Shown: piece by piece, positions 2,404 to 63,945 of the stretch | How the letters are laid out: each line of letters begins with the position of its first letter | Position numbering within the stretch: position 1 is the first letter of the stretch | Sequence record: MT968995.1 | Length of the DNA stretch: 64,000 bases | Direction: 5' to 3' (one strand) | Origin: Escherichia phage vB_EcoM_WL-3 | Made by a program: the position numbers and the translations under genes | The notes under the pieces: model-generated | Told to the model about the DNA's origin: nothing | The model's database searches: none | The model's input: only the letters and a program-made list of their open reading frames with translations

Positions 2404-2424
2404 TTCAATGTCCTCATTTGCCCA

Positions 2425-2460
2425 ATTAATTATACCACATCCTTGTGGTAAAGTAAACTA
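2425..2460 (-). promoter_or_regulatory. early promoter (GTTTAC, ~16-nt spacer, TGGTATAAT) upstream of rIIA.1
   Basis: minus strand reads GTTTACTTTACCACAAGGATGTGGTATAAT; nearly the same motif recurs at 46655-46690. Confidence 0.55.
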
Positions 2461-4278
2461 CTGGCTCATCCATTCTTTACGAAGATCAGCATTATCTCCC
2501 ATAAGCATTTCAAAAAGCTCTTTCCAGTTCTCAGGAAGTTTAACAACGTCATAAACTGGGTTCTGAATCATTTCACGGTATTCAGATTTTTCCAAAGAGC
2601 CAAGTCCCTTAATATAACGGATGCTATGTTTAGGTAGAGCATCTTTGGCACTCTCATATTCAGCGACTGTATAAAACCATTCTTGTTTTTTACCGACCTG
2701 AGCAATGATTACAGGAGTTTTGACAAAGCGAATTCTTCCTTGTTCAAACAGTTCTGGCCAATTACTAAAAAATCCGAGCAGAGAAGGATAAATGCTTCCT
2801 AGACCATCATGGTCGGCATCGGTCATAATTGCAATATTATGATAATTCAAGTTTTCGGCTTTTTCACCAAGAACTAATCCAGTGATTGCGCAAATATCAA
2901 ACAGTTCTTTGTTTTTAAGCATATCAGCATAAGACATACCCCAACTGTTGAGAACTTTACCGCGCAATGGATAACCGCCATGAAGTTCTTTATCACGAAC
3001 ATCAATAAGATATCCGATAGCAGAATCTCCCTCAGTCAAGAAAAGAGTAGTATCAGCATCTTTACCACAAAGATTCGCTTTGATATGTTTATGAACCTTA
3101 GCTTTAGAGGCCTTTTTAGCTGCTTTAGTTTCTGCTGCCTTTTCTGCCGCCAATTTACGAGCCAAGGCAGCTTCAATAATTGGCATTAAAATTGCTTCAT
3201 TATTCAAAATAGCACGTGAAATCTTTTTAGCATCAAGCTGAATATGACTACGGATTTCACCAAATGGAGAAGTCAGACGCTCTTTAGTTTGAGAATCAAA
3301 TCGCATGTTTTTCATATCACGAACAAACATAACGATAGTCAAACATTCTTTAACACGTGCTTTAGTTACATCAATTTTGAACTTGCGTTTGATTTGTGGA
3401 ATAAGGTCTTCACAAATATCATCCATAACACAGTCAATGTGATGGCCACCATTCTTAGTATGAATGTTATTGACGTACGTTAATTGACGAAAACCATCCG
3501 GTGAACGACCAACCGCAATAGAACAGTTTTCTTGTTCTTGAACGATGGTGTGTTCATCATATTGGCGTGCATATTTCTTAAAATTACCCTGAACCTTTTT
3601 ACCATTAAAGGTAAATTGAATATCAGGATAAACTACTGCAAGTGTCTGGAGACGATCTAGTGTAATGTCAAGATAAACTTGAGATAGCTCATTAGTTTCA
3701 AATGACATAAAATCGGGAATGAAAGTAACGCGAGTTCCTTTCCATTTTCCAGGAATATCTTCCCACGATTTATTTTCCATGCCGTTTGAACAACGAACTA
3801 CAATATTATTTTGACCGTCGCCAGTTTCACCGACAAACATCACAGAAAAAATGTTAGTTAAACTAGAACCAACACCATTCATACCACCGGTGACGCGTTC
3901 TTTATCATCACCAAAGTTACCACCTGCTTTTGGAATAGTCCAGGCAGCAACTGGACCAGGAATTTCTTCACCAGTAGGTGTTTTAACCATCGCCTGTGGA
4001 ATACCACGACCGTTATCTTCAACTGTTACTTGATTGTTTTTGATAGTAACATTAATTTTATTTGCGAATTTAAACTTAGTACGAATACCTTCATCTACTG
4101 AGTTATCGATAATTTCATCAATAAGCTTAACAAGACCAGGTACATACTGAACACTTTCCCATTTACCAAACAGAAAGCGCTCATGCATTTCATTAGCAGA
4201 AGAACCAATGTACATGCCGCTACGCTTTTTGATATGTTCAATATCGCTCAGAATTTTAATTTCATTCTTAATCATCAC
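2458..4278 (-). CDS. 39: DNA topoisomerase II large (ATPase, GyrB-like) subunit, unsplit form
   Basis: 606-aa continuous ORF; T4 has this function split into genes 39 and 60; continuous form as reported for T2/T6-like phages (recall). Confidence 0.85.
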   Translation of the reverse strand: MMIKNEIKILSDIEHIKKRSGMYIGSSANEMHERFLFGKWESVQYVPGLVKLIDEIIDNSVDEGIRTKFKFANKINVTIKNNQVTVEDNGRGIPQAMVKTPTGEEIPGPVAAWTIPKAGGNFGDDKERVTGGMNGVGSSLTNIFSVMFVGETGDGQNNIVVRCSNGMENKSWEDIPGKWKGTRVTFIPDFMSFETNELSQVYLDITLDRLQTLAVVYPDIQFTFNGKKVQGNFKKYARQYDEHTIVQEQENCSIAVGRSPDGFRQLTYVNNIHTKNGGHHIDCVMDDICEDLIPQIKRKFKIDVTKARVKECLTIVMFVRDMKNMRFDSQTKERLTSPFGEIRSHIQLDAKKISRAILNNEAILMPIIEAALARKLAAEKAAETKAAKKASKAKVHKHIKANLCGKDADTTLFLTEGDSAIGYLIDVRDKELHGGYPLRGKVLNSWGMSYADMLKNKELFDICAITGLVLGEKAENLNYHNIAIMTDADHDGLGSIYPSLLGFFSNWPELFEQGRIRFVKTPVIIAQVGKKQEWFYTVAEYESAKDALPKHSIRYIKGLGSLEKSEYREMIQNPVYDVVKLPENWKELFEMLMGDNADLRKEWMSQ

Positions 4279-4325
4279 TTATCCTCGTTTGGTTTCGGGA
4301 ATATTATACTCCGGTAATCATAAAG

Positions 4326-4347
4326 CTAAAGGCCCGAAGGCCTTTTA
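4326..4347 (-). terminator. tetraloop hairpin (AAAGGCC-CGAA-GGCCTTT) directly after the lipoprotein gene stop
   Basis: perfect 7-bp GC-rich stem with 4-nt loop, T/A-rich flanks. Confidence 0.5.
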
Positions 4348-4617
4348 TTTAAAACGGATAGTCGAATCCTTGAAGAATAGACCAGAACATACTGTTCCTT
4401 CTACTTTCTGCCCGGTAGGTCCAATAGCACGAAATCCAGTGTGTTGGAAATCATTTTCAGAGCAACCAAACCAATTGTATCCAGTGATTTCAATATTAGT
4501 AAACCCACTTGAAGACAAAACTTTGGTTGCATTATCAGCATCAGTACATCCTACTAAAGATACTGCTAATACTAATGCTGCGATAGAACGATTAACATAT
4601 TTCATAATTTCACTCAA
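4345..4617 (-). CDS. predicted lipoprotein (signal peptide with LVGC lipobox)
   Basis: N-terminus MSEIMKYVNRSIAALVLAVSLVGCTD; occupies the T4 39.1 position. Confidence 0.55.
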   Translation of the reverse strand: MSEIMKYVNRSIAALVLAVSLVGCTDADNATKVLSSSGFTNIEITGYNWFGCSENDFQHTGFRAIGPTGQKVEGTVCSGLFFKDSTIRFK

Positions 4618-4981
4618 ATTTAATGGCTTGAAGAAGACTAATAATTCTCAAGCGGCTTCTTTCATCTTTAACTGTAAAAGAAAGAGGGTCGCCAGATTTC
4701 ATAGTGATAGTGCATTCAAAATCAAAATCTTCAGGAACTTCTTCGAAGAAGTCAAATTCTTCATCATAAATTAGAACATTACTCTGAAAACTATGAAGAA
4801 TTTTTCCATCATTTCCAGATGCTGTACTAATCATTGTAACATTATGGCCTTTCATATCTTCAACGATAAATTCACTTGTAGATATTACGGCATTAATAGA
4901 ACCATTCCTATAAATAGAAGAAAATAGATATTTCTTTTCTTCACCTTCGCGAACACGATATTTCTTACCAATTTTAAACAT
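4610..4981 (-). CDS. hypothetical protein (123 aa)
   Basis: ORF in track, same-strand packing with overlap to the neighbouring gene. Confidence 0.5.
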   Translation of the reverse strand: MFKIGKKYRVREGEEKKYLFSSIYRNGSINAVISTSEFIVEDMKGHNVTMISTASGNDGKILHSFQSNVLIYDEEFDFFEEVPEDFDFECTITMKSGDPLSFTVKDERSRLRIISLLQAIKFE

Positions 4982-5810: not shown

Positions 5811-6092
5811 TTAATTGAACAGTGGAGCGATGCGTTTCAGAAGAGTAGCAGCACCTTTGGCAAATTTTACATCATGAAAAACAGTTTCTTCTTCCGTTAC
5901 AACACGAACTTTAATGTTTTCACAATCCCAATTTTTACGAACAATCTTCAAAAGCTGCAGTAAATCTTTACATTCTGCAATATCGATAACACATCCACGA
6001 GAATCTTCCATTATCGCACGATAACCATAAGCCATACCATAATCGTTGAAAGATTGTTCGATGATAATTAAGTTTTCCATTTTATTCTCCAA
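5811..6092 (-). CDS. hypothetical protein (93 aa)
   Basis: ORF in track with consistent strand and packing. Confidence 0.45.
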   Translation of the reverse strand: MENKMENLIIIEQSFNDYGMAYGYRAIMEDSRGCVIDIAECKDLLQLLKIVRKNWDCENIKVRVVTEEETVFHDVKFAKGAATLLKRIAPLFN

Positions 6093-6117
6093 GTTGTTTT
6101 CTGTATCAGTAGTTGAT

Positions 6118-6180
6118 ATTGATATAGTACCATAATCAACTACTGATGTATATAGTTTTATGAAAAAATTTTAAATTTTA
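6118..6180 (-). promoter_or_regulatory. early promoter-like element with A/T UP element
   Basis: TGGTACTAT -10-like motif on the minus strand followed by an A/T tract; diverged member of the repeat family seen at 24421, 49621 and 51061. Confidence 0.4.
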
Positions 6181-6669: not shown

Positions 6670-6709
6670 AGCTATTTCTCACTTGTTAAAAAGATTTTAT
6701 ACTCCACAG

Positions 6710-6745
6710 GACCATTATACTCTGGTCCCAAGAGTTTGTAAACTT
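6710..6745 (-). promoter_or_regulatory. early promoter (GTTTAC ... GTATAAT)
   Basis: minus strand GTTTACAAACTCTTGGGACCAGAGTATAAT; intergenic region upstream of the motB-position gene. Confidence 0.5.
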
Positions 6746-6799
6746 AATTTAATTCACTAAACGATAAATTTCATTTTTATTATCCTCAGTAGCTATGGT

Positions 6800-6835
6800 G
6801 GTATAATACCACAACTAACCGAGGAAGTAAACAAC
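6800..6835 (-). promoter_or_regulatory. early promoter (GTTTAC ... TGGTATTAT)
   Basis: minus strand GTTTACTTCCTCGGTTAGTTGTGGTATTAT; second of two tandem promoters in this intergenic region. Confidence 0.5.
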
Positions 6836-6838
6836 TTT

Positions 6839-10399: not shown

Positions 10400-10426
10400 A
10401 TTTTTCTCACGGACGGGTTAACTACT

Positions 10427-10462
10427 TATACTATAACATTTTTACTTCAGCTTGTAAACAAC
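10427..10462 (-). promoter_or_regulatory. early promoter upstream of srd
   Basis: minus strand GTTTACAAGCTGAAGTAAAAATGTTATAGTAT. Confidence 0.5.
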
Positions 10463-10469
10463 TTTATGA

Positions 10470-10498
10470 AAAATGCTTTAAAACTTTCATGGTATAAT
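10470..10498 (+). promoter_or_regulatory. MotA-box middle-promoter-like motif on the plus (antisense) strand
   Basis: plus strand AAATGCTTTA, 12 nt, TGGTATAAT; spacing fits the T4 middle promoter consensus; could be coincidental. Confidence 0.3.
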
Positions 10499-10515
10499 GA
10501 ATCTAAGTCCTTCCA

Positions 10516-11118: not shown

Positions 11119-11750
11119 TCAACTACCTCAATATCATACACTTTAAATGTTCCAAACGAATCGTGTAATTTTTCTTTTGAAATAGAAGTTATTTTATACT
11201 TTCCAATTGGAATCATCCATTCTTGTTCACGCACAATCATCATTAAGTTATCAGTACGTTCTGAATCTAATCCATCAGTATCTTCATATGTATACTTAAA
11301 CTCAGTATTAGGAGAAGAAAGTATAATATCGCTGATATGGTCAGAATAATTAAAAGCTTTATCAGTTTTTAAGCGAAATATTATTTCAGTGAAATACTCA
11401 ACATAAGAAAAACCGCATGCTGTGTGCAAACTAGTAGTAAATGAATCTACTCTGTTCGTTGAAAACACTTCTCCGACTTGTAAATCTTTAATGAGTTCTT
11501 TTGTCGATTTTGATATACCACGATATAACTGATAAGGTGATTCAGTTAAATGCTTTTTAACGATTTTATTCAACTGCCGATGAAGAGCTTCATTCTTTTT
11601 GGCTTCCATACATTGCCAAAGAATTGACTGTTCAAAGTCAGTAAATTTTTCACAGACCTTTTTATACATATCATATTGAAAATCAACGCTTTCAGCTTTT
11701 ATAGATAACTGTTCAACATCTGCAAGATTAATAATCATGATAGCCTCCAT
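11115..11750 (-). CDS. modB: ADP-ribosyltransferase ModB
   Basis: 211 aa; LYRG, STNRV and EQEWMIP motifs; paralog of the adjacent modA. Confidence 0.7.
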   Translation of the reverse strand: MEAIMIINLADVEQLSIKAESVDFQYDMYKKVCEKFTDFEQSILWQCMEAKKNEALHRQLNKIVKKHLTESPYQLYRGISKSTKELIKDLQVGEVFSTNRVDSFTTSLHTACGFSYVEYFTEIIFRLKTDKAFNYSDHISDIILSSPNTEFKYTYEDTDGLDSERTDNLMMIVREQEWMIPIGKYKITSISKEKLHDSFGTFKVYDIEVVE

Positions 11751-11761
11751 ATACTTCAGAA

Positions 11762-11797
11762 GCTATCATATCATTGTTAGGAAGGAAAGTAAACAAC
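11762..11797 (-). promoter_or_regulatory. early promoter upstream of modB
   Basis: minus strand GTTTACTTTCCTTCCTAACAATGATATGAT. Confidence 0.45.
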
Positions 11798-11805
11798 TTT
11801 TTGAA

Positions 11806-13296: not shown

Positions 13297-13634
13297 TCAC
13301 AAGATGTAGATGAACAACTAGAATCACAAGAACTTCCACATGAATCGCCCGCCCATGCATGAACAGGAACATTAGTATCATATGAATCAGAACTAGACTG
13401 TGTATTCTGCGTATTAGATGATGTAGTAGGTGTTGACCAGCGCCAAGGATTTTTATAATATTCTTGGGCTTCTTCATAAGTCATAGTAACTGCTTCTACT
13501 GTTCCATCTCCCATATAAACATACTCAACTACAGTTAAAGGAAGGTAGTCATTTGAAATAGGAACTACACCTTCTCCAGGAGCTGTAGAGAAAAAATCCG
13601 TAAAGAAATTTTTAAACCAATTAAAGATAAACAT
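13293..13634 (-). CDS. hypothetical protein with Cys/Ser-rich C-terminal tail
   Basis: 113 aa ending [18 protein letters not shown]. Confidence 0.5.
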
Positions 13635-13846
13635 TACAAAAAGCCTCTTTGAAATTCGACTCTTTGAAATCCACCCCAGTCAGTGTATCGCATTTCAGCA
13701 TTGAACTCGACTGAACCATCTGCATGCATCATGAATGAATGCGTGACGATATCACAATCCCAGCTTTTCATATCCCATTTATCAGAGATAGCTTTATCAA
13801 GAACCTTCTGGAGGTCTTCATTTGGTTTAATCCAACGATTTAACAT
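13634..13846 (-). CDS. hypothetical protein (70 aa)
   Basis: ORF in track. Confidence 0.45.
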   Translation of the reverse strand: MLNRWIKPNEDLQKVLDKAISDKWDMKSWDCDIVTHSFMMHADGSVEFNAEMRYTDWGGFQRVEFQRGFL

Positions 13847-13869
13847 AGTGCTCTCCTCTATAAGATAAT

Positions 13870-13905
13870 TCTATTATACCATACTCATTTTGGAAAGTAA
13901 ACCAG
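13870..13905 (-). promoter_or_regulatory. early promoter (GTTTAC ... TGGTATAAT)
   Basis: minus strand GTTTACTTTCCAAAATGAGTATGGTATAAT; part of a promoter/stem-loop cassette repeated at 54505-54573. Confidence 0.55.
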
Positions 13906-13910
13906 TAAAA

Positions 13911-13938
13911 TGAAAAAAGGACTCCCAAAGGAGTCCTT
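13911..13938 (-). terminator. rho-independent terminator after soc
   Basis: 9-bp stem AAGGACTCC/GGAGTCCTT with 4-nt loop, followed on the minus strand by a U-run. Confidence 0.7.
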
Positions 13939-13944
13939 GAATTA

Positions 13945-14190
13945 TTAACCGCCAGTTACTTTCCACAAATCTTCATTTGCAGCAATCCATTCAGTACGTT
14001 GATTTTCTTCATATACTGTAGAATACGCTGCTTTTTCTGAAGGGAATGTCTGGTAATGAGCGCCAGAAATTTTGTGAACATCAGAATAAAGAGGGAAAGC
14101 TACAGAAATTTCCTTTCCTTCAATTTTCTTATTTCCATCTAATTTCTGCTCAAATGTTTTGATATTAACATAACCGCGAGTACTAGCCAT
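13945..14190 (-). CDS. soc: small outer capsid protein Soc
   Basis: 81 aa starting MASTRGYVNIKTFEQKLDGNKKIEG; matches T4 Soc from recall. Confidence 0.9.
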   Translation of the reverse strand: MASTRGYVNIKTFEQKLDGNKKIEGKEISVAFPLYSDVHKISGAHYQTFPSEKAAYSTVYEENQRTEWIAANEDLWKVTGG

Positions 14191-14792: not shown

Positions 14793-15443
14793 TTATTTTT
14801 CCTTTCTTATGAAGTTTTCTATCATATGTCTATAGCAGATATTAGGATAACCTGCCTTGACAGCTATTTTATTAAATTTTGTGCGCTTAGGTCTATTATT
14901 ATAAACCCATAATTCATAAAGCGCATCATAACTATTCCATATTTCTCCTCGCCTAGGATTTGGTAAACCATATCGAGGTGAATTTTTACCGCTAAATCTT
15001 CCTTTTCGGGCTTTACTCATATTAGTCTTGGCTTCATCGGATATAATTTTACCTTTATGAGCTAGACGCATTTTGGCTTTAGTTTCTTCTGGAGTCTTTT
15101 TACCTTTAATCCATGACGGCTTGCCATATCTAGGATTATTTTCACCCGAGAAAAGAACAGAGTTTTGGATTTTAAGGGTTTCTATTAATCTACTTGTTAA
15201 TTTAACACCTTTATTATATCGCATTAAATTTACAGCATAATGCAATCCTCTCACATCTGGATATATTTTAGTTAATAATCTATGAGCTATAAAATGCTCA
15301 CGCGCAGTTAACTCAACAAGATTGTTTTTGCCATCTGCTCCTCCCATACATCTAGGAATTATATGATGGCGTTCTTTATATCCGCCAAGATGCCGGCATT
15401 TAGCTTTTGTAATTAAAGCCGAATAAATTTTTTGGTAATTCAC
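14793..15443 (-). CDS. HNH homing endonuclease (Mob family)
   Basis: N-terminus ...ERHHIIPRCMGG...NNLVELTAREHFIAH, an HNH signature; paralog of the ORF at 52242-52931; sits where T4 has gene 69/dam. Confidence 0.75.
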   Translation of the reverse strand: MNYQKIYSALITKAKCRHLGGYKERHHIIPRCMGGADGKNNLVELTAREHFIAHRLLTKIYPDVRGLHYAVNLMRYNKGVKLTSRLIETLKIQNSVLFSGENNPRYGKPSWIKGKKTPEETKAKMRLAHKGKIISDEAKTNMSKARKGRFSGKNSPRYGLPNPRRGEIWNSYDALYELWVYNNRPKRTKFNKIAVKAGYPNICYRHMIENFIRKEK

Positions 15444-17570: not shown

Positions 17571-17593
17571 GATAATCTCCTCAGTAGTTTATG

Positions 17594-17630
17594 TTTATAT
17601 AGTATCTCAATTTCCAACAAAAGTAAACAA
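17594..17630 (-). promoter_or_regulatory. early promoter upstream of sp
   Basis: minus strand GTTTACTTTTGTTGGAAATTGAGATACTATAT. Confidence 0.45.
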
Positions 17631-18072: not shown

Positions 18073-18099
18073 AACAATCTCCTCATTTAACCAACAAGA

Positions 18100-18131
18100 C
18101 TACTATACCATAGTCTTGTCAGCTTGTAAAC
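18100..18131 (-). promoter_or_regulatory. early promoter upstream of dmd
   Basis: minus strand GTTTACAAGCTGACAAGACTATGGTATAGT; the -10 is embedded in an 8-bp palindrome CAAGACTA/TAGTCTTG. Confidence 0.5.
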
Positions 18132-21163: not shown

Positions 21164-22006
21164 TTAATCAACTGCTATTGGATGAATAGCATTAAACTTA
21201 TGAAATGCTTCTGATTTTTCTTTACGCGAAACGCACATGCGAAGAACCTTTAATGGCTCGTCTTCTTCACCCAACGATTTTCGTTTTTCAATATTAGAAG
21301 TTTTCCAACGAGCTTGCTCTGGAAACTCTCTATTGATTTGCTCAAGCGCTCTATTATGTTTAGAATTACTACGAATTGAACTGCACCCTCCAGGAGCTTG
21401 TGCTTTTCCAGATACAACCAGATATTTGAACAAGGCCAAATGCGGATAACCTTGATTAATTAAATTGAGAAATGCATACATATCTTCGCACAAATCAATT
21501 TTTCCATACCCAATTTGTTCTGTCGTAAGTTTTCCAAGGTCATACCATGTATTCGTGAATCCATATGAATTTTCACGATAATTACCCCAAGATGAAGTAA
21601 TTTTAAAAATTGGTAGGCGAGCATGACCGTGATAATACCCACAATCCATGGCATCTTCGACGTATTGAATCAATTCATAGAACTGTTCACGAGTCAATTG
21701 ATTGACTTTATCCACACAACGACGATCATCTCTTTTTCGCATTGAACTCATACGAATAGTAGTATCATCGTCAATCATCCAGATTCGTTGACCTGCATAC
21801 ATATCAGTAATTGCTTTACGAGTACCGGCAATTCCATTAACATCATCAGGAATAGTTACAATTTTAGCTTTAGACCCATAGGCATCATAATAAGCTTTTT
21901 CTTCATGTTCACGTACTACGATATGAGGTTCATAATCAGTCGGAAACATATCAAGGGCAGAAACTGCCCCTACACGTTGATAGCTCGGAATTACGAATTG
22001 AATCAT
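21164..22006 (-). CDS. putative glycosyltransferase (DxD motif) in the beta-gt slot
   Basis: 280 aa with IWMIDDDTTI; not T4 beta-gt by sequence recall; position fits the T2/T6 beta-glucosyl-HMC-alpha-glucosyltransferase locus. Confidence 0.5.
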   Translation of the reverse strand: MIQFVIPSYQRVGAVSALDMFPTDYEPHIVVREHEEKAYYDAYGSKAKIVTIPDDVNGIAGTRKAITDMYAGQRIWMIDDDTTIRMSSMRKRDDRRCVDKVNQLTREQFYELIQYVEDAMDCGYYHGHARLPIFKITSSWGNYRENSYGFTNTWYDLGKLTTEQIGYGKIDLCEDMYAFLNLINQGYPHLALFKYLVVSGKAQAPGGCSSIRSNSKHNRALEQINREFPEQARWKTSNIEKRKSLGEEDEPLKVLRMCVSRKEKSEAFHKFNAIHPIAVD

Positions 22007-24168: not shown

Positions 24169-24178
24169 AATAATTTCC

Positions 24179-24415
24179 TCAAATACAAGTAGTAATTACT
24201 CCAGTAGTGCTTACACAGGTATTACCTAATTGAACACCCAGCGTTCCATTAGTATTCATATGAAGATTATCATCAATTTTTGTTGATACTTTACCATTCA
24301 TGTGAATAATAGTATTAGATTCAATCACATTCTGAGTGTCATTTTCAATATCAATAAATGGAACAACTGCTAATGCAACTAAACACACTGCTAAACAACC
24401 ATAAACAATTTTCAT
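24179..24415 (-). CDS. small secreted/membrane protein (79 aa from internal Met)
   Basis: track ORF extends upstream through the promoter repeat; real start likely MKIVYGCLAVCLVALAVVPF, which has an SD GGAG upstream. Confidence 0.45.
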   Translation of the reverse strand: MKIVYGCLAVCLVALAVVPFIDIENDTQNVIESNTIIHMNGKVSTKIDDNLHMNTNGTLGVQLGNTCVSTTGVITTCI

Positions 24416-24444
24416 TTTATTCTCCAAATCCGTATCAGTTGATA

Positions 24445-24505
24445 GTTGTATAGTACCATGGAAGAACAGGGATGTAAATAGTTTTGTGAAAAAATTTTTA
24501 ATGAA
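24445..24505 (-). promoter_or_regulatory. early promoter with UP element (TTTACA, 17 nt, TGGTACTAT)
   Basis: 47-bp segment 24415-24461 is identical to 51035-51081, covering the -10, 5-prime UTR and start codon. Confidence 0.55.
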
Positions 24506-24561
24506 TTTACAGGACCTAGAATCATCTATTTTTCCTAAGTATAGATTTATATTACTTGTAT

Positions 24562-24584
24562 GAAAAAGGGACCCGGAGGTCCCT
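24562..24584 (-). terminator. rho-independent terminator after gene 43
   Basis: GGGACC-CGGA-GGTCCC stem-loop followed on the minus strand by UUUUUCAU. Confidence 0.65.
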
Positions 24585-24596
24585 AGATTTATTCTA

Positions 24597-27348: not shown

Positions 27349-27369
27349 AATAAGGGGCCGAAGCCCCTT
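27349..27369 (-). terminator. tetraloop hairpin (AAGGGGC-CGAA-GCCCCTT)
   Basis: 7-bp GC stem directly after the stop of the upstream small ORF. Confidence 0.5.
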
Positions 27370-27371
27370 GC

Positions 27372-27593
27372 TTAAATTAATACCATTTGTCGGTGAAAAA
27401 TTGTCAATCCATCTGCATTAATTGACTTAACCACTGCGGTAAAGTGTTTTTGTTCTGGGTGAACTAATTTTTGAAATTCTACCTGAAATTTTAGTTGGAG
27501 ATTTTCTGGTAAATCAAAAAGTGTTTCTGTTGCAGAAAGATTATATTTTTCTTTAAGAGACGCCATGTATTCTTGCGGGGTTATAGCAGTCAT
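27372..27593 (-). CDS. hypothetical protein (73 aa from MTAITPQEY)
   Basis: ORF between regA and gene 43; start trimmed to avoid overlap with regA. Confidence 0.4.
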   Translation of the reverse strand: MTAITPQEYMASLKEKYNLSATETLFDLPENLQLKFQVEFQKLVHPEQKHFTAVVKSINADGLTIFHRQMVLI

Positions 27594-27964: not shown

Positions 27965-28528
27965 TTACCATTCCAATGCTAGTTTTTTGAGTTGTTTCTG
28001 TTCTTTTACATTCTTAGTCACTTCTTTTAAAAAATCATCCGTGACTAAACCTTTTAGTTCTTTTAATACTAAAGGAAGTTTTCCATTTTTAGTAAGAATT
28101 GATTTATAGTTAATTGCATCATTTGTATTAACTTGATACCGCTTAGCAAGTAACTTAATAATCAATACTTCAGTAGAATCTTCGACCAGTTTTGCCCATT
28201 TACCATATCTTTTACCCCGAGGAACAGCAGCCATCAGGTAATTAAAATGGGCTTCATCGCTTAAACCTGATCCAATTAAATTCATAGCATATACAGCTGG
28301 CATGCATTCAGGAAATTGTGATAATGCATTCTCAACCATGTATTTTGAATAATCTTTTTGAGCAATAGAGCATTTAGTTTTATTATTAATAGCTCCAATT
28401 ATTTCAAAAAACTCATTTTCAGCTTTTTCTTTAAAAGAATCAGCAGCAGATTGGACAGCTGTCCAATCTTTTGAATACCAAGCAACTTGATGCTCGTTTA
28501 ATTGAATATCATCTTCAAATAAGCTCAT
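27965..28528 (-). CDS. 62: clamp loader small subunit
   Basis: 187 aa; adjacent to gene 44. Confidence 0.85.
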
Positions 28529-29504: not shown

Positions 29505-29521
29505 GTTTTAGTGTAAATTAT

Positions 29522-29538
29522 AAAGGGCCGAAGCCCTC
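29522..29538 (-). terminator. tetraloop hairpin after gene 45
   Basis: AGGGC-CGAA-GCCCT between gene 45 stop and gene 44 start. Confidence 0.45.
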
Positions 29539-29540
29539 TA

Positions 29541-30227
29541 TTAAAAATCGTGGGTAGAATCAGCTTCAAGAGCTACTACATAATTCGCATGTTCACCTTC
29601 AAATTTAGCAGCGCCTTGTTTACCTTTTGCCCAGAGAAGAAGTTTATAATTTCCTGGTTGCATTTTCATATTTGCCATATTGATAATGAAATTAAATGTA
29701 TTTTCACCATCATAATCACCAAGAGTCAAAGAATATTTAACACGGGTCAAAGCAGAATCTTCTACTTTATTAAAACCGTTAATTACGATTTTACCTTCTT
29801 TTACTGTGATAGCAATTGTATCAATCTGCAGACCGCGAGATACACGCAATAGCTGTTGAAGGTCTTCAGCTTTAATTTCAGTAACAACAGATGCTACCGG
29901 GAATGGAATTGGTTTATTAGGAGCAACTACTGTACTCGGATCGGCTGCTGGCCAAAAAATTGTTGAACGGGCATCAGCAATTTTAATATTTCCATCTTCT
30001 GACTGGGAAATTTCTGCATCGTCGTTAACTAGAGACAGAATACCGAGAAAACCGTTCAAATCGTAAATTGCTACATCAAAATCAATAGTGTCAGAAATAT
30101 TTGCTTCTGCATAAGTTGTACCATTAACCGCGCGAGTCATAATAAATTGACCGGATTTAAGCATAATACCGGAGTTAATAGTAGCGAAATTTTTGAGCAG
30201 AGCAGTAGTATCTTTAGACAGTTTCAT
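29541..30227 (-). CDS. 45: sliding clamp
   Basis: 228 aa; size and position as T4 gp45. Confidence 0.9.
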   Translation of the reverse strand: MKLSKDTTALLKNFATINSGIMLKSGQFIMTRAVNGTTYAEANISDTIDFDVAIYDLNGFLGILSLVNDDAEISQSEDGNIKIADARSTIFWPAADPSTVVAPNKPIPFPVASVVTEIKAEDLQQLLRVSRGLQIDTIAITVKEGKIVINGFNKVEDSALTRVKYSLTLGDYDGENTFNFIINMANMKMQPGNYKLLLWAKGKQGAAKFEGEHANYVVALEADSTHDF

Positions 30228-34071: not shown

Positions 34072-34231
34072 ATATCAAGAACCGTCATTGAAATGCAAAA
34101 TAAAATTATTGAAATAAATCCATCTGGAGTGCTAAAGAACCCAATCCAACATGCTCTAGTAAATAGATAAAATGCAAGAAAAAGTATCACATATCCAAGA
34201 AATATCATTATATCAAACTCCGTATAAAGCT

Positions 34232-34249
34232 AAAGGGCCGAAGCCCTTT
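34232..34249 (-). terminator. tetraloop hairpin at the end of alpha-gt
   Basis: AAAGGGC-CGAA-GCCCTTT. Confidence 0.5.
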
Positions 34250-35450
34250 ATTTTGTAATAATGTCAAATTGTTCTTTAAAGCAGAAGCTTGAATCTTGAT
34301 GCTGATACAAAAATTCATAAGCTTTTTCGCGTTCGCGGTCATAAAGAGCTCGGTCAGATGACAGTTCTTTAATACGTTCAAATGTTGATTCCATGTCATT
34401 TTCATCAAACCAAACGATACCGCTATCATGAGAAATTAATGGAGTATTATCAACACGGAATTTTAAATTTTCGCCCGTAGATTTCCAAAATACTGGAATT
34501 GTTCCGCATGCACCAAGCTCGAGATGAGTATATTCTAAAGAACGTTGTAGATATTTTTTATCTAATTTACTCAGCTGATAACCAAATCCGGATTTACTCA
34601 TACGTTCAAGCATTTCGCTATTTACATAACGGTCAAGAATTTGCGTTGGCAAATTAGGAGCAATTTTAATTTGGTCTACTTGATGAAGACGATAATACTC
34701 GTATGGAATTCCTTTTTCTTTAATAGGAATGAATGCTGGAGAACGTTCCAGACCTTCCATAATAGTACTTAGTCCTGCAGGTTTAAGATGTTTTTCGTGA
34801 AAATCAAACATCTGGTAAAAACCTTTCCATGTAGTCGTACGACCAATCCAACGGTTGATATTCATGTTAATTTCAGAAACATCTTTCCAGTAGGTTGATC
34901 GAACCTTCGCAATATCCATAGGAGGCTGAAAGTTATATACGGTCGGTGCTTCTTCAATATCATCAAACAAAGAAACAGTTTCCGGATACCATTCTTTCAT
35001 TAAAACTTTATTAAAATCGCCATTATCAGAATGACTAAAAATAACATCAGCTCGACGAACAGTTTCTTCTAATCCCAAATTTCGGCGTAAAGAAAGAGAA
35101 GAATGGTCATGCTGATAAACTACAACACGAACCGAAGGTTTAATATTATCAATAATTTTTTTATAGTTATTAATTGTGTCTTCTTCGACTGAAGTAGCAG
35201 GAACTGAATTGATAATTAGAATATCACAATCATTTACCAGCTTAAGTGTTTTATCGTATTCTTTTGCCAATAAAACCGGAATTGAAAATGATTTATAATC
35301 ATGCGCGCAATTACGAGTAAATGATTTATCTTTAGCATAAACCAAAGTTACTTCATGACCATTTTTAATAAACCAATCACGTTGCTCAAGAGAAAATTTA
35401 GTTACACCGCAACCTTCAAGACCTCGAGCCATAAAAATACATACTTTCAT
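34248..35450 (-). CDS. a-gt: DNA alpha-glucosyltransferase
   Basis: 400 aa starting MKVCIFMARGLEGCGVTKF; size and position as T4 alpha-gt. Confidence 0.85.
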   Translation of the reverse strand: MKVCIFMARGLEGCGVTKFSLEQRDWFIKNGHEVTLVYAKDKSFTRNCAHDYKSFSIPVLLAKEYDKTLKLVNDCDILIINSVPATSVEEDTINNYKKIIDNIKPSVRVVVYQHDHSSLSLRRNLGLEETVRRADVIFSHSDNGDFNKVLMKEWYPETVSLFDDIEEAPTVYNFQPPMDIAKVRSTYWKDVSEINMNINRWIGRTTTWKGFYQMFDFHEKHLKPAGLSTIMEGLERSPAFIPIKEKGIPYEYYRLHQVDQIKIAPNLPTQILDRYVNSEMLERMSKSGFGYQLSKLDKKYLQRSLEYTHLELGACGTIPVFWKSTGENLKFRVDNTPLISHDSGIVWFDENDMESTFERIKELSSDRALYDREREKAYEFLYQHQDSSFCFKEQFDIITK

Positions 35451-37022: not shown

Positions 37023-37292
37023 TTATCTAAGTAAACAGTATGCTTGGAACACTTTCTCCATCATCTTTTTAAATTCATGAATATCTATGTAATGACTAGT
37101 TAAATCAGCATGATATAAAAAGTCTAAAAACTTTTCATGTGTGCTAACATATTCGCTTTCATTTAATTCAGAAACATGGCTTTCCCAATATCCAACACCA
37201 GTCTTATTTGGGAAAAATGAAATTTTCATGTATTGGTCAACATAGAAAATTCCATAATTTTCAATAGTAATAGAAATATTAATAAATTTCAT
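37023..37292 (-). CDS. hypothetical protein (89 aa)
   Basis: ORF in track. Confidence 0.45.
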   Translation of the reverse strand: MKFINISITIENYGIFYVDQYMKISFFPNKTGVGYWESHVSELNESEYVSTHEKFLDFLYHADLTSHYIDIHEFKKMMEKVFQAYCLLR

Positions 37293-37869: not shown

Positions 37870-37888
37870 AAAAGGGCCGAAGCCCTTA
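37870..37888 (-). terminator. tetraloop hairpin AAGGGC-CGAA-GCCCTT
   Basis: 6-bp GC stem at the end of the ORF 37886-38086. Confidence 0.45.
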
Positions 37889-38694: not shown

Positions 38695-38833
38695 ATCAAA
38701 TCCTCAAAGGCAATTCATATGTTAATAATACCACAGTTTGAACTTCTTGTAAACAACTTTGTGAAAATTATTTTAGGGAATGATAAGAAGGGAACGATAG
38801 CTTAGAATGGTAATATACAGAATGTGAGAAAGA

Positions 38834-38851
38834 AAGGCCCAGAGGGCCCGT
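38834..38851 (-). terminator. hairpin GGCCC-AGA-GGGCC after nrdH
   Basis: GC stem immediately downstream of the nrdH stop. Confidence 0.4.
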
Positions 38852-38852
38852 C

Positions 38853-42287: not shown

Positions 42288-42337
42288 TTTAAGTATTGTA
42301 AAACATTCGATGCAATCGTTTATACTGTCGAATCATC
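42288..42337 (-). repeat. ~50-bp direct repeat, copy 1 (3-prime end of the mini-ORF)
   Basis: ~85 percent identical to 42500-42550. Confidence 0.7.
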
Positions 42338-42465
42338 TTTTTAGTAGGACGAGAATAGGTTCCTACGCAAGTGGTCATATGAGGGTCCGTAGAATGTCCT
42401 TTAATAAAAAGTTTCCAAACCTTACCGCCATTTAACTTTTCAGTATAAACCAATTCGGTTTTCAT
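42289..42465 (-). CDS. hypothetical mini-protein (58 aa) with duplicated C-terminus
   Basis: hand-translated MKTELVYTEKLNGGKVWKLFIKGHSTDPHMTTCVGTYSRPTKKMIRQYKRLHRMFYNT; last 15 aa repeat the C-terminus of the upstream 167-aa ORF. Confidence 0.35.
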   Translation of the reverse strand: MKTELVYTEKLNGGKVWKLFIKGHSTDPHMTTCVGTYSRPTKKMIRQYKRLHRMFYNT

Positions 42466-42499
42466 TAAAATGCCTTGTCAGAAAAAGAATTTTGAGTTT

Positions 42500-42550
42500 T
42501 TTCAAGTATTATAAAACATTTGATGCAATCGCTTATATTGCCGAATCATT
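42500..42550 (-). repeat. ~50-bp direct repeat, copy 2 (3-prime end of the 167-aa ORF)
   Basis: pairs with 42288-42337; a shorter motif GTCAGAAAAAGAATTTTG also occurs twice (42476 and 42555). Confidence 0.7.
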
Positions 42551-43005
42551 TGGTCAGAAAAAGAATTTTGTGTTTCAAGCCATTCAATATATTCTGCCGC
42601 AGCTTGCATCAGGTTACCTTCATAATCATCAATATCTTTTTTCAATGCCACTTTAGCTAATGCATATGAAATACGTTCACCTTGAAAAGCGGCTTTAGGC
42701 TTCTGAACAACTTGATTAGTTCGCTCTACAACTTCTTCAATTTCGCCATTTTCAACGGATTCAGTATTCCATAAGCACCAATACGTAATTGGCTTATCAT
42801 AGATATTAATAATCTTTCCGTCGGAAAGTTCAATTTCAATAATTCCAGTATCAGGTTCTATATCATCTTCACATTCTTTTGCAAGTTCACGAACTTTAAA
42901 GACAGTACCTGCACTAAGTTCCGGCCAGTAATTACACAGCCCTGTATCAACACGATTAATTCTAAACCACTTATCTACTGTAATCATGTCCCATCTCCAT
43001 ATCAA
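42502..43005 (-). CDS. hypothetical protein (167 aa; pin-position)
   Basis: ORF in track; T4 has pin (protease inhibitor) near here but identity is not verified. Confidence 0.45.
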   Translation of the reverse strand: MIWRWDMITVDKWFRINRVDTGLCNYWPELSAGTVFKVRELAKECEDDIEPDTGIIEIELSDGKIINIYDKPITYWCLWNTESVENGEIEEVVERTNQVVQKPKAAFQGERISYALAKVALKKDIDDYEGNLMQAAAEYIEWLETQNSFSDQMIRQYKRLHQMFYNT

Positions 43006-46629: not shown

Positions 46630-46654
46630 AATAATCTCCTCAGTAGAAAGTAAG

Positions 46655-46690
46655 AACATTATACCACATCCTTGTGGCAAAGTAAACTAG
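46655..46690 (-). promoter_or_regulatory. early promoter (GTTTACTTTGCCACAAGGATGTGGTATAAT)
   Basis: near-identical to the promoter at 2425-2460. Confidence 0.55.
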
Positions 46691-49606: not shown

Positions 49607-49629
49607 TTTCTGTTCCTCCGTAGTTGATA

Positions 49630-49666
49630 GTTGTATAGTACCACAGAGGAACAGTCTTGTAAACCA
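49630..49666 (-). promoter_or_regulatory. early promoter (GTTTAC ... TGGTACTAT), promoter repeat family
   Basis: shares AGTTGATAGTTGTATAGTACCA with 24421 and 51061; the -10 is embedded in the inverted repeat GTTCCTC/GAGGAAC. Confidence 0.5.
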
Positions 49667-49981
49667 CTAAAAGAAACTTCTTTCACAATTTTTTCCACTG
49701 AACCATGCGCTTACCGCTTTCTTAGTCTCAGGAGCAGTGTTATCCATAAACCATTCAAAGGCAGCCTTTTTATGATTCTGGAGGGCTTCTCGGGCTTTAA
49801 TCTGCTCACGGTCTATTAACACTAACATATGAGCCTTTCTTGTCACCATGGGCTTCTTATGATTTTTTGAATACTCCCAGTCATTTGTCCATCGCATTGT
49901 CGTTGCGAATTGAAATACTGCTTCTTTAATCTTAGTTTCGTAAATTTCACGAGCCTTTGAGTATAACATCACTACCTCCAT
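49667..49981 (-). CDS. hypothetical protein (104 aa)
   Basis: ORF in track. Confidence 0.45.
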   Translation of the reverse strand: MEVVMLYSKAREIYETKIKEAVFQFATTMRWTNDWEYSKNHKKPMVTRKAHMLVLIDREQIKAREALQNHKKAAFEWFMDNTAPETKKAVSAWFSGKNCERSFF

Positions 49982-50070: not shown

Positions 50071-51039
50071 TTATTTCAGAAGAGTAACCTCAGCAATTTC
50101 TTCCCAACCGTTTTTGTCGGTCATAATAAAGTCAGCAAGATAAAGAGCAGTACGTAGTGAAACATTGCGTAAACGATTAACATTAACTTTCATCCATGAT
50201 AATGCTTTATAAGTTTCTTCATCAGAAAGACCGCGCTTTTGCATCATGTCAGTTGAAAGAATAACATCTTCAACCCTGACCATAATTTCTTCATTAGTGT
50301 GAACACCCAAATCCAAATAAACTGAGCGGGACACTAATGCTTGTAAGTGTGGAGCAAGTTTAGTACCACGGTCTAATTCGCGGTCAATGTCAACGTTTGT
50401 GATAAAAACAATCGTTCCTTTAAATTCAAACTCACGGTCAATGCCTTTTTCTTCTAAGTAAGAAGATGCAGTGCTCCAGCAGACTTTACGGGTCTCTCCA
50501 GTGTCCAGAGCAGCTTTTAGAAGATTAAGAATGTCCATATCAGAGAAAACATCCACATCATCAATCAAAAGGACAGAATTCTCTTCACGATTATTCCAAA
50601 GCTGTTCATAAAGACCAATACCAGAGATTTTACCATTAATGCTTTTATATTCAATGTATCCATTATCATTTGCTTTATTTAAAGCTTTATCTAAAGAATA
50701 CGTTTTACCAATACCTGCTGCGCCAGAGATAATTAATGAACGAATGTTTCCGTTAATAATACCATTCGTCATCATTCCCATAACATTAAATCTTTTATTA
50801 ATGCGGGTTTTCATATCTTCATACGATTCTTTAACTTCTTCAACTTTTACACCATCATATGAAATGTCTGATTTGTAAACCCAAACACCGCGACGTTTAC
50901 CGTCAATTTCAACAAAAACTTTACCATCTCCTTGTGCATCTACTGGAGCATTATCTGGGAACCATTCGCCTAAGAGCTCAAAAGTTCCAGAGATTTCTTT
51001 ACCGAAGTAGATACCCTTATTGATAGTTACAGTTTTCAT
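50071..51039 (-). CDS. P-loop ATPase (322 aa from MKTVTINKG)
   Basis: Walker A GAAGIGKT and Walker B VLLIDDVD; the track ORF is extended upstream through the promoter repeat; T4 nrdC.10 position. Confidence 0.6.
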   Translation of the reverse strand: MKTVTINKGIYFGKEISGTFELLGEWFPDNAPVDAQGDGKVFVEIDGKRRGVWVYKSDISYDGVKVEEVKESYEDMKTRINKRFNVMGMMTNGIINGNIRSLIISGAAGIGKTYSLDKALNKANDNGYIEYKSINGKISGIGLYEQLWNNREENSVLLIDDVDVFSDMDILNLLKAALDTGETRKVCWSTASSYLEEKGIDREFEFKGTIVFITNVDIDRELDRGTKLAPHLQALVSRSVYLDLGVHTNEEIMVRVEDVILSTDMMQKRGLSDEETYKALSWMKVNVNRLRNVSLRTALYLADFIMTDKNGWEEIAEVTLLK

Positions 51040-51069
51040 TTTATTCTCCAAATCCGTATCAGTTGATAG

Positions 51070-51125
51070 TTGTATAGTACCATAAAGCTTTATGCTTGTA
51101 AACAATTTTGTGAAAAAATTTTTGA
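51070..51125 (-). promoter_or_regulatory. early promoter with UP element (GTTTACAAGCATAAAGCTTTATGGTACTAT)
   Basis: core and 5-prime UTR identical to the element at 24415-24461. Confidence 0.55.
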
Positions 51126-51127
51126 AA

Positions 51128-51154
51128 TAAAAAAAGGGAGCCCGAAGGCTCCCT
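51128..51154 (-). terminator. rho-independent terminator after the nucleotidyltransferase gene
   Basis: GGGAGCC-CGAA-GGCTCCC followed on the minus strand by UUUUUUU. Confidence 0.7.
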
Positions 51155-51155
51155 A

Positions 51156-52202: not shown

Positions 52203-52241
52203 TCAATCGATGATAATTAGATTTTGGATATCCTAATTTAC

Positions 52242-53563: not shown

Positions 53564-53704
53564 AATTACATACTCCTTTGAATAATATCAATAATGTTGT
53601 TCACCAGATTATAAGTAAACATCGGATGATAATATTGAATCATCACATACACAACAAACAAAACTTTCATTCTCTTCTCCTCGGCAGATGGCAAGATTAC
53701 TATA

Positions 53705-53740
53705 CCATAACCTTGCCAACTTGTAAACCATTAAATGACG
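53705..53740 (-). promoter_or_regulatory. early promoter (GTTTACAAGTTGGCAAGGTTATGGTATAGT)
   Basis: intergenic, upstream of the 185-aa ORF. Confidence 0.5.
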
Positions 53741-54330: not shown

Positions 54331-54527
54331 GCCATATGAGTTGCAGCTTCATCACACATATCATAACGTTTCTTAAGAAGTTCTACAAGTTCTTCACTTG
54401 TAACTTCATCCATGTCGACGAAAAAATCACCATTAATGATGACGTAAATATTTCCTTCTTGATTAAGTGCTTCAATTTTCATGATGTTCTCCTCTTTATC
54501 CGATGGTTGTATAGTATCACAACTCAA
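54294..54527 (-). CDS. hypothetical protein (77 aa)
   Basis: ORF in track. Confidence 0.4.
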
Positions 54528-54545
54528 ATGGAAAGTAAACCGGTA
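54505..54545 (-). promoter_or_regulatory. early promoter, part of a repeated promoter/stem-loop cassette
   Basis: GGAAAGTAAACCGGTAAAATGAAAAAAG plus hairpin is ~90 percent identical to 13892-13938. Confidence 0.5.
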
Positions 54546-54549
54546 AAAT

Positions 54550-54573
54550 GAAAAAAGTCTCCCGAAGGAGACT
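54550..54573 (-). terminator. rho-independent terminator (GTCTCC-CGAA-GGAGAC)
   Basis: stem-loop followed on the minus strand by a U-run. Confidence 0.65.
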
Positions 54574-54577
54574 AATG

Positions 54578-58480: not shown

Positions 58481-58504
58481 GTTGTTCTCCTCTTAACTGA
58501 TAGA

Positions 58505-58540
58505 AAAATTATACCACAGTCAAGAGGAAAAGTAAACAGT
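58505..58540 (-). promoter_or_regulatory. early promoter upstream of regB
   Basis: minus strand GTTTACTTTTCCTCTTGACTGTGGTATAAT. Confidence 0.6.
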
Positions 58541-60679: not shown

Positions 60680-61096
60680 TTAAATGTAAATATTTTTGCC
60701 GTAATACTTATACCAGTGTGGCTTCATTAAAATTTTTTCATCGAGTCGTTGTTGACTCAACTTAATAGCTGATTTGCATGGATTATAATCATTTTTCCAT
60801 TCTACTGGAATATCGCTGATGTCAGGAACTTCAGTATCTTTTATACTGAACCCGCGTTTTAAGCATTCCGTTATAATGTCCGATTGACGCTTTCGCAAAA
60901 ATTCTAACTTATCGTAAAAGAAAGTAACATGACCAGAACCTAAAATAAATTTAGAAGATATTTTAAAATCTTTAACGCGCTTACCGTTTGCCACATGCTT
61001 ACGAACTATACCAAAAACACGCGGCAATTCACGGTATTCTGCGATTAAATGTTGATCAGCAAGTTCAGATACTAAAGTCAAATTAATACGAGTCAT
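60680..61096 (-). CDS. denV: endonuclease V (pyrimidine dimer DNA glycosylase)
   Basis: 138 aa starting [17 protein letters not shown]; matches T4 DenV from recall. Confidence 0.9.
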
Positions 61097-61155
61097 TTTA
61101 TCCCTCCAAGTAACTGTGAATATACTATCACAATTCTAGGAGAAAGTAAATAGCT

Positions 61156-63929: not shown

Positions 63930-63945
63930 TCCTATTTACTCCAAG

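Follow-up and report, generated by a model that had tools for sequence, protein, structure and literature searches.

Positions 13870-13938, together with the leader down to 13844, very probably form a composite regulatory cassette that is read on the minus strand: a predicted terminator of soc, followed by a T4-type early promoter for mrh.2. The window, as we call the whole 64,000-nucleotide stretch of DNA analysed here, has 18 such promoter cassettes in all. These cassettes are real and ordinary, and they are already known: the literature contains elements of this type, their T4 orthologs and the hypothesis that genes are shuffled through them. Their likeness to one another is probably maintained by polymerase recognition together with shared descent or occasional conversion. 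As an observation, the original prediction of repeated promoter/stem-loop cassettes is confirmed, apart from small errors in coordinates and percentages; its interpretation is partly supported.

The main use of these results lies in correct annotation, as the cassettes mark both the starts and the ends of early transcription units in a T4-like phage, and marking them matters for predicting the expression of accessory genes. In addition, the comparisons independently support published terminator-promoter junctions as sites of module exchange, one of the exchanges being intergeneric, with the caution that cassettes are not significantly associated with mosaic breakpoints in our sample once non-cassette junctions serve as the control. 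Besides that junction-level control, the work usefully adds the intergeneric module and, at the focal site, a four-gamete case.

The cassette between soc and mrh.2

The window is a Tequatrovirus (T4/T2-like) segment that is colinear with T4 kb 0-69. Comparison of its ORFs with T4 proteins shows that T4 gene order is kept from rIIA to e.3, with rIIA at 12-2189, coordinates identical to those in T4, and 814 phage records, for the most part of Tequatrovirus, matched a 4-kb query around the flagged site at up to 97.7% identity. In places the gene content is T2-like: gene 39 is unsplit, motB.1 and motB.2 are absent, and a T2-type glucosyltransferase (ggt) ORF at 21164-22006 replaces T4 beta-gt. Since the minus strand carries nearly all genes of the window, the features of the cassettes are read on that strand. 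The flagged site itself lies within the 98 nt that separate soc (13945-14190) from mrh.2 (13634-13846).

Following soc into this gap, the first element is a hairpin at 13938-13917, AAGGACTCC-TTTG-GGAGTCCTT, which is succeeded by TTTTCATTTT and lies 6 nt past the soc stop codon, the arrangement of an intrinsic terminator. Its folding energy is -15.1 kcal/mol (z = -4.8 relative to shuffles; terminator hairpin stability spans z -4.7 to -4.8), and its UUUG loop is a variant of the C(UUCG)G-type tetraloop with one base changed. The stem is preserved in orthologs by compensatory changes (GGACTCC/GGAGTCC versus GGAATCC/GGATTCC), and compensated stems are also seen in the paralog. Downstream, the promoter call places a -35 box TTTACT at 13901-13896 and a -10 box TATAAT at 13878-13873, separated by a 17-nt spacer with TG; the promoter is the ortholog of the T4 promoter at 15288. 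Two elements named in the original prediction are present under other identities: 'GGAAAGTAAACC' is the -35 box read backwards, and the 'A-tract' is the T-run of the terminator.

This architecture suggests how the cassette would work. The strong intrinsic terminator would stop transcription leaving soc, and an 'uber' sigma-70 early promoter, with its UP-like A/T tract, GTTTAC, TGn and TATAAT, would restart it straight after the terminator for an early unit comprising mrh.2-mrh.1-mrh-srh-modA.4-.3-.2. Terminator and promoter together would thus insulate soc from the mrh.2-modA.2 early unit.

Eighteen early promoters and their repeats

A PWM built from 15 obvious sites returned 18 early promoters on the minus strand of the window (Table 1), whereas the plus strand and shuffled sequence gave no hit. 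They occupy 17 junction intervals of 54-181 nt, all intergenic, and a Shine-Dalgarno sequence and ATG lie 3' of every cassette. The cassette consensus, A.T.GTTTAC(ttt/aag)...tGTGGTAT.AT, is the T4 early-promoter pattern, and the further marks of that class are all present: GTTTAC at -36 to -31, TGn, a TAnnnT -10, an A/T-rich UP-like region, an early gene downstream and T4 orthology. Run on T4, the same scan found a syntenic ortholog for 18/18 cassettes. In T4 record U76612, the ortholog of cassette 54540 (cassettes are referred to by promoter position) is annotated as 'terminator', '-35 signal' and '-10 signal, early promoter 57.9'.

Table 1. Predicted terminator, promoter and cassette features of the window.
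Feature	Coordinates	Strand	Evidence and remarks
Intrinsic terminator hairpin 3' of soc	13917..13938	-	terminator scan; 9-bp stem, UUUG loop; T-run 13916-13907
T4-type early promoter of mrh.2	13873..13902	-	GTTTAC 13902-13897, TGg TATAAT 13878-13873; PWM 37.2 bits, 0 hits in shuffles
5' leader of mrh.2	13844..13872	-	Shine-Dalgarno GAGGAG 13858-13853; start codon 13846-13844; leader 26 nt
Paralogous cassette, rI.-1/mobD.5	54483..54577	-	UUCG-loop hairpin 54573-54556 and T-run; GTTTAC 54540-54535; TACTAT 54516-54511
Cassette, gene 43/78-aa ORF	24416..24596	-	terminator ~24580-24560; ATTTAC 24479-24474; TACTAT; family-A 5'UTR; mosaic of paralog segments
Cassette, nrdC.11/nrdC.10	51040..51155	-	UUCG terminator; GTTTAC 51103-51098; family-A 5'UTR; 'empty site' of an insertion hot spot
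Family-A early promoter, nrdC.9/nrdC.8	49607..49666	-	GTTTAC 49664-49659
Family-A early promoter, motB/ORF upstream of cef	6081..6177	-	ATATAC 6153-6148; hairpin overlapping -10
Two tandem early promoters	6670..6838	-	GTTTAC at 6832 and 6743; 5-codon motB.2 remnant between
Early promoter of rIIA.1	2404..2458	-	hairpin CCACA-AGGA-TGTGG between boxes; pairs with promoter at 46687
Early promoter of nrdC.4	46630..46687	-	97% identity over 32 nt to promoter at 2458
Early promoter of dmd	18073..18131	-	14-bp hairpin enclosing -10; -18.9 kcal/mol, z -7.1
Early promoter of mobD.2	53671..53730	-	homologous hairpin enclosing -10
Early promoter of srd	10400..10515	-	GTTTAC 10459-10454; PWM and T4 ortholog
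Early promoter of modB	11739..11805	-	GTTTAC 11794-11789; PWM and T4 ortholog
Early promoter of sp	17571..17630	-	GTTTAC 17628-17623; PWM and T4 ortholog
Early promoter of 55.6	38695..38852	-	GTTTAC 38754-38749; PWM and T4 ortholog
Early promoter of regB	58481..58539	-	GTTTAC 58537-58532; PWM and T4 ortholog
Early promoter of denV (ipIII in T4)	61097..61155	-	ATTTAC 61151-61146; PWM and T4 ortholog

The position of the stem-loop varies. In three cassettes (13902, 54540 and 51103), a typical intrinsic terminator stands directly 5' of the promoter, in 24479 the terminator lies ~95 nt 5' of it, and in other cassettes the hairpin is found within the promoter. Altogether, a hairpin of -6.9 kcal/mol or lower, upstream of or inside the promoter, occurs in ~12 of the 18 cassettes, the hairpins of the rest being weaker or doubtful. 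For the 14-bp stem that encloses the -10 in cassettes 18131 and 53728 (sub-family D), 99.4% of cells are paired among 11 sequences from these two loci, compared with 21-71% in slid controls, and four pairs are changed on both sides. C(UUCG)G loops cap the hairpins at 54573-54556 and 51149-51126 as well as the T4 ortholog of the focal hairpin, and CTTCGG occurs 29 times in the window versus 11.8 expected. An Rfam search of the whole window matched no structured RNA family.

How far does the identity between cassettes extend beyond the promoter consensus? A self-BLAST of the window gave seven direct matches with E<1e-3, every one of them inside a promoter-bearing gap; the 17 gaps together amount to ~1.6 kb or 2.4% of the sequence. 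E-values among cassettes range from 1e-23 to 5e-4. For a null that keeps the consensus, each aligned column was shuffled among the 18 promoters, with the hexamer columns given zero weight and a 95% family-wide threshold. Seven pairs exceed this threshold (24479/51103, 6153/24479, 13902/54540, 17628/46687, 24479/49664, 2458/46687 and 6153/51103), which excludes identity limited to the hexamers, the outcome on which the original prediction would have fallen.

The repeats sort into four sub-families. Sub-family A (6153, 24479, 49664 and 51103) has in common an invariant core of 21-22 nt, TGGTACTATACAACTATCAACT, and related leaders; sub-family B (13902 and 54540) shares the terminator and CTTTTTTCATTTTACYGGTTTACTTTCC; sub-family C (2458 and 46687) is characterized by a hairpin between the boxes, and sub-family D by the hairpin around the -10 described above. 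The longest repeat, 24405-24499 against 51029-51123, covers 95 nt at 86% identity (E = 1e-23) and contains an exact run of 51 nt through the -10, 5'UTR and ATG. The original prediction had correctly seen a repeat through these elements at 24415-24461 but aligned it with 51035-51081, at which offset only 10/47 positions agree; after a 4-nt shift to 51039-51085, the match is 45/47. Its further family members at 6118-6180 and 49621-49680 correspond to promoters P6153 and P49664.

For the focal cassette and its paralog, ~90% identity had been claimed between 13892-13938 and 54527-54571. A block of 28/29 identical nucleotides is real (13891-13919 versus 54529-54557, E = 2e-6), but over the full spans only 38 of 45-47 positions are identical (~81-84%). 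Outside the shared 28-29 nt, each copy is closest to its positional ortholog in seven genomes, and the hairpin architecture is similar. A scan of IMG/VR with the sub-family B block found only 7 loci on 5 contigs, too few for a survey of context. The cassette repeats of the window are kept in T4, T2 and four other genomes. Two reasons for the likeness of the cassettes suggest themselves: all would be held to the same extended RNA-polymerase recognition pattern, and subsets would have real common ancestry, or have undergone gene conversion, beyond that pattern.

Module exchange at the cassettes

The focal site offers a case of exchange among relatives. Across ten genomes, mrh.2 falls into two allele classes with 98-100% versus 56-80% identity to the window, and soc likewise into two, with 92-100% versus 54-74%. 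Every mrh.2/soc combination is represented: 1A by the window and LF73P3, 2A by T4 and IME340, 2B by TH09 and UFV05, and 1B by ESh16. The interval 13847-13944 holds 86-100% identity across the same ten genomes, and many phages of a wider collection match 13815-13953 only. Four allele combinations around a conserved island of ~130 nt imply at least one exchange inside the island.

A second case is found between nrdC.11 and nrdC.10, where the window, T4 and LF73P1 have a single cassette. At this site, T2 has a cassette, a 161-aa ORF (T2_95) and another cassette; LF73P3 has three cassettes and three ORFs; and in TH09 a 66-aa ORF accompanies two cassettes, such that each of the one to three extra ORFs in these phages has its own cassette. 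The T2 insert is flanked by a repeated terminator/UP/-35 part, with window positions 51087-51154 aligning on both sides, a layout that is compatible with recombination between neighbouring cassettes that would give mini-circles or deletions. It consists of the ADP-ribosyltransferase-like ORF T2_95 and its promoter, and a 590-nt counterpart of this module with 96.8% identity is present in Salmonella phage STML-198, a Gelderlandvirus and thus a member of a different genus. The shared block runs from 9 nt 5' of the -35 to 16 nt past the stop codon, and another 47 nt with the -10 and leader match at 95.7%; in the flanks, the homologs of nrdC.11 and nrdC.10 are only 67% and 76% identical. STML-198 carries one 'degraded' half element.

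Exchange also appears to have taken place within cassettes. The cassette upstream of imm.1 is a mosaic made up of segments found in its paralogs. The window copy has an upstream part peculiar to this locus, a spacer with 100% identity to that of the e.8-upstream cassette of three other phages, and a leader with 98% identity to that of the nrdC.11 cassette. The T2 copy matches the nrdC.9 cassette in both spacer and leader and precedes a different ORF.

Cassettes that are conserved while the accessory genes beside them diverge constitute short homology islands at gene boundaries. Recombination between co-infecting relatives at such islands may reassort or insert gene modules, and inserted genes would often arrive with their own cassette. 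We consider the chances about even that the cassettes have this secondary role as linkers, that is, as homology islands for module exchange between co-infecting T-even genomes. T4 recombination is inefficient below ~50 bp of homology; the identical cores of 22-51 nt would therefore be marginal substrates, in agreement with the weak statistical signal.

That signal comes from mosaic boundaries, for which the window was aligned with six genomes and divided into similar and diverged segments by a two-state HMM, resulting in 125 boundary clusters; ERS-1, with no more than about half of the window aligned, carried less weight in the comparisons. Boundaries are denser at gene junctions of all kinds, with ~5 per kb versus 2 per kb overall, and no enrichment at cassettes was found: 8/17 cassette junctions and 38/104 other junctions have a boundary (Fisher p = 0.28). 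Non-cassette gaps of at least 40 nt are even richer than the cassette junctions (15/24 versus 8/17). As far as these data go, the linker role looks opportunistic and does not exceed that of other gene junctions. For gene shuffling through the cassettes, the evidence is mixed: the cassette-bounded exchanges described above favour it, and the junction counts speak against it.

The differences between the window and T4 tell the same story. Only ~6 of ~24 differing ORFs are contiguous with a cassette, and the window-specific ORFs at 4610-4981, 27372-27593 and 37023-37292 have no cassette at either end. Most of the 17 indels and replacements are homing endonuclease or intron events (mobA, segF, mobB, mobC, I-TevII), joined by replacements around dam and segA/beta-gt. 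Four of the 17 touch cassettes, and none resembles cassette-by-cassette recombination. Such recombination was considered for three of them and rejected: the indels 5873-6072 and 24169-24407 have 8-nt repeats rather than cassettes at their ends, as in microhomology deletions (both copies at 24169-24407 read ATGAAAAT), and in the third, the motB.1/motB.2 deletion, both promoters survive 60 nt apart with five motB.2 codons between them. At the ipII/ipIII difference, the junction lies inside the leader. The 78-aa ORF behind P24479 was likewise rejected as a mobile gene, having one place per record in 325 phage records, the same locus in those numbered from near rIIA. As for the focal pair, 40 kb of DNA with essential replication genes (41, 43, 44, 45 and others) separate its copies, so that crossing over between the two in a single genome would be lethal.

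Could selection on function explain everything? Pure functional convergence, in which selection for a strong promoter, an efficient terminator and a good translation start leaves no special part for recombination, strikes us as unlikely but deserves to be taken seriously. Mosaic boundaries would then be found at gene junctions because only such recombinants are viable. The long consensus of T4 early promoters and the synteny of every cassette with T4 agree with this explanation, as do the sub-family B loci, each closest to its own ortholog outside the 28-nt block, and the junction test without enrichment. However, it does not account for the seven pairs that beat a consensus-preserving null, as these include positions in the spacer and 5'UTR that lie outside RNA-polymerase recognition. 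It is equally at odds with the gene 43/imm.1 alleles, whose spacers or leaders are 98-100% identical to cassettes elsewhere, and with an intergeneric, 97%-identical block that begins and ends within cassette sequence.

In the opposite direction, the cassettes could be structure-specific recombination sites instead of passive homology islands, a cruciform or hairpin being cut by a phage junction nuclease in an integron-like gene capture. What points to this is the combination of covarying hairpins that enclose the -10 with segment exchange around an invariant core. The cassettes in question have their hairpin in the promoter (18131/53728, and also 6743, 6153 and 2458/46687), and those of sub-family A exchange UP/-35, spacer and leader segments around the 21-22-nt core. 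We nevertheless regard this as improbable.

Less probable still is that the cassettes are autonomous mobile elements, MITE- or integron attC-like, which move alone or by a dedicated recombinase. Repeats of 30-95 nt dispersed over accessory regions, the invariant core of sub-family A and the mini-circles reported for phi1/RB49 could be read in this way. But synteny with T4 extends to all 18 cassettes. They have thus stayed in place, and the 'mobile' of the original prediction is not supported for the cassettes themselves. Moreover, no lone cassette was gained or lost between the window and T4, extra cassettes in other genomes are always accompanied by an ORF, the alignments contain no terminal inverted repeats or target-site duplications, and no Rfam structured RNA family is present in the window. 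Chance similarity in AT-rich intergenic DNA, conceivable at a G+C content of 34% and with two-copy short repeats frequent in the repeat listing, is already refuted by E-values down to 1e-23, by 7/7 direct matches within 2.4% of the sequence, by a PWM without hits in shuffles and by the conservation of the repeats in T4, T2 and four other genomes.

Cassettes as early regulatory units, kept alike by recognition and by descent or conversion, with an opportunistic share in exchange, remain our preferred reading. The cassettes had also been said to flank the ORFs of least obvious function, which is overstated, as the early units also hold motB, srd, modB/modA, sp, dmd, regB and denV.

Relation to PeSLs and T4 early promoters

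PeSLs were defined in phi1/RB49 as a strong sigma-70-like promoter with an AT-rich upstream region and a stem-loop that can take any of five positions (Arbiol 2010, PMC2839356). Lying between genes and closing with a Shine-Dalgarno sequence and ATG, they occur as repeats beside differential ORFans; recombination between them was proposed, and mini-circles were shown (PMC2839356). For the T4/PST pair, the consensus TTTACW-N17-TAYWAT with stem-loops just 5' was described (Comeau, Arbiol and Krisch 2014, PMC4122927). The focal site has the sigma-70-like promoter in the form TTTACT-17-TATAAT with TG, a stable stem-loop in or beside it, an intergenic location with an AT-rich 5' part and a 3' Shine-Dalgarno sequence and start codon, and repeats in the genome that are conserved beyond the hexamers, as the self-BLAST and the seven pairs above the null demonstrate. 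All structural features of a PeSL being present, the PeSL label of the original prediction was right, and the combination of terminator/stem-loop and early promoter had already been published for T-even phages (PMC2839356, PMC4122927).

With the T4/PST PeSLs, the window cassettes share the phage group, the consensus, the stem-loop 5' of the promoter, the 3' Shine-Dalgarno sequence and start codon, and the intergenic location among accessory genes. T4/PST PeSLs adjoin indels and include 'degraded' half elements, such as the one found here in STML-198; unlike them, the window cassettes are no more strongly associated with indels than other junctions are. In several window cassettes, the stem-loop is inside the promoter, whereas the PST figure legend places stem-loops just upstream (PMC4122927).

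The likeness to the phi1/RB49 PeSLs consists in the composite of sigma-70-like promoter and stem-loop, with sub-classes that have the stem-loop upstream, between the boxes or over the -10. RB49 ORF192 parallels T2_95: a cassette-ORF-cassette arrangement in one genome faces a single cassette in another, here the empty site of the window. However, phi1/RB49 promoters are of the TTGACA type, with polyG/polyC stems and ~100 bp conserved, unlike those of the window. Differential ORFans are contiguous with a PeSL in 10/14 cases in phi1/RB49, compared with ~6/24 between window and T4, and mini-circles were shown experimentally in phi1/RB49.

Two further T-even features have counterparts here. The C(UUCG)G tetraloop was first found in T4 mRNA (summarised in PMC4371310), and the intercistronic C(UUCG)G hairpins of T4 are matched at 54573-54556 and 51149-51126, whereas the focal copy in the window has UUUG. 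The T-even internal-protein (IP) locus has conserved flanks, according to its citation in a later article (Repoila et al. 1994, cited in PMC4122927). Promoter 61151 of the window is the T4 ipIII promoter, downstream of which T4 has ipIII and ipII, T2 has ip4 and the window has denV directly.

The mapped early promoters of T4 have been described as 'uber' UP/-35/TGn/-10 promoters with further consensus regions (Hinton 2010, PMC2988021) and with GTTTAC at -36 to -31 (Nolan et al.). They share GTTTAC, the TGn with a TATAAT-like -10, the A/T-rich upstream region and 18/18 positional orthology with the window promoters, and no difference of substance separates the two sets. By these sequence features, the promoters of the window are the T4 early promoter class in another T-even isolate.

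An accessory gene at an early promoter cassette

The cassette between nrdC.11 and nrdC.10, an early promoter region of the T4 type, is an empty site in the window, whereas T2 and the Salmonella phage STML-198 carry an ADP-ribosyltransferase-like gene (see table). Between T2-like coliphages and STML-198, a Gelderlandvirus, the DNA of this gene shows 97% identity, but its flanking genes are only 67-76% identical. Its product shares about 30% identity with ModB-type proteins.

Coordinates of the features discussed (window positions unless stated otherwise)
Feature	Coordinates	Strand	Location
ADP-ribosyltransferase-like gene	STML-198 locus L024 1416-2051; T2 51672-52367; empty site 51040-51155		
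-10-enclosing hairpins	18088-18126; 53685-53724	minus	dmd and mobD.2 promoters, respectively
GGGCC-GAAG-GCCC copies	4320-4345; 27350-27369; 29516-29541; 34226-34251; 37871-37887; 63943-63968	plus	intergenic gaps without early promoter
Perfect palindrome, 22 nt	28448-28469		within gene 62
Imperfect palindrome, 43 nt	42244-42286		gene 49/pin interval
Insertion region	42337-42575		upstream of pin
23-nt repeat	42477-42499; 42553-42575		in the pin-upstream insertion
Tandem early promoters	6670-6838		
Unsplit gene 39	2458-4275		
HNH endonuclease ORF	14793-15443		upstream of gene 56, on the gene 61 (primase) side
78-aa ORF	24179-24415	minus	between promoter and imm.1
Locus without ipII and ipIII	61097-61155; 60680-61096		

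Hairpins, repeats and palindromes

At the early promoters of dmd and mobD.2, the -10 box lies inside a 14-bp hairpin. Across 11 sequences from the two loci, 99.4% of cells are paired, and four pairs have changed on both sides. Neither hairpin is followed by a U-run; therefore, they are not typical terminators. A second repeat family, GGGCC-GAAG-GCCC, which corresponds to a C(UUCG)G hairpin in the transcript, occupies intergenic gaps lacking an early promoter, and one of its copies adjoins the breakpoint (27375) of a 219-nt insertion specific to the window. The window also contains two palindromes, one perfect and one imperfect.

Compared with T4, T2, TH09 and LF73P1, the window has about 160 nt of inserted sequence upstream of pin, which contains a 23-nt repeat and a short ORF similar to the N terminus of pin.

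Loci that differ from T4 and T2

Two complete early promoters, 60 nt apart, are separated by ATG-AAA-TTT-ATC-GTT-TAG, in which five codons of motB.2 survive. At this site motB.2 and motB.1 (about 0.9-1.0 kb) are present in T4 and in four further genomes, whereas T2, like the window, lacks both.

The endonuclease genes also differ: where T4 has dam, the window has an HNH endonuclease ORF with 34% identity to MobD, and segF, located between soc and 56 in T4, has no counterpart. The topoisomerase gene 39 is unsplit, lacking both the gene 60 bypass segment and mobA. The 78-aa ORF, whose N terminus is lipoprotein-like (MKIVYGCLAVCLVALAVV...), is found in 325 phage records; T4 lacks it, and T2 has an unrelated ORF in its place. 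Finally, the T4 internal-protein genes ipII and ipIII are absent from the window; denV lies directly downstream of the promoter that drives ipIII in T4 and is predicted to be driven by it, whereas T2 carries ip4 at this locus.
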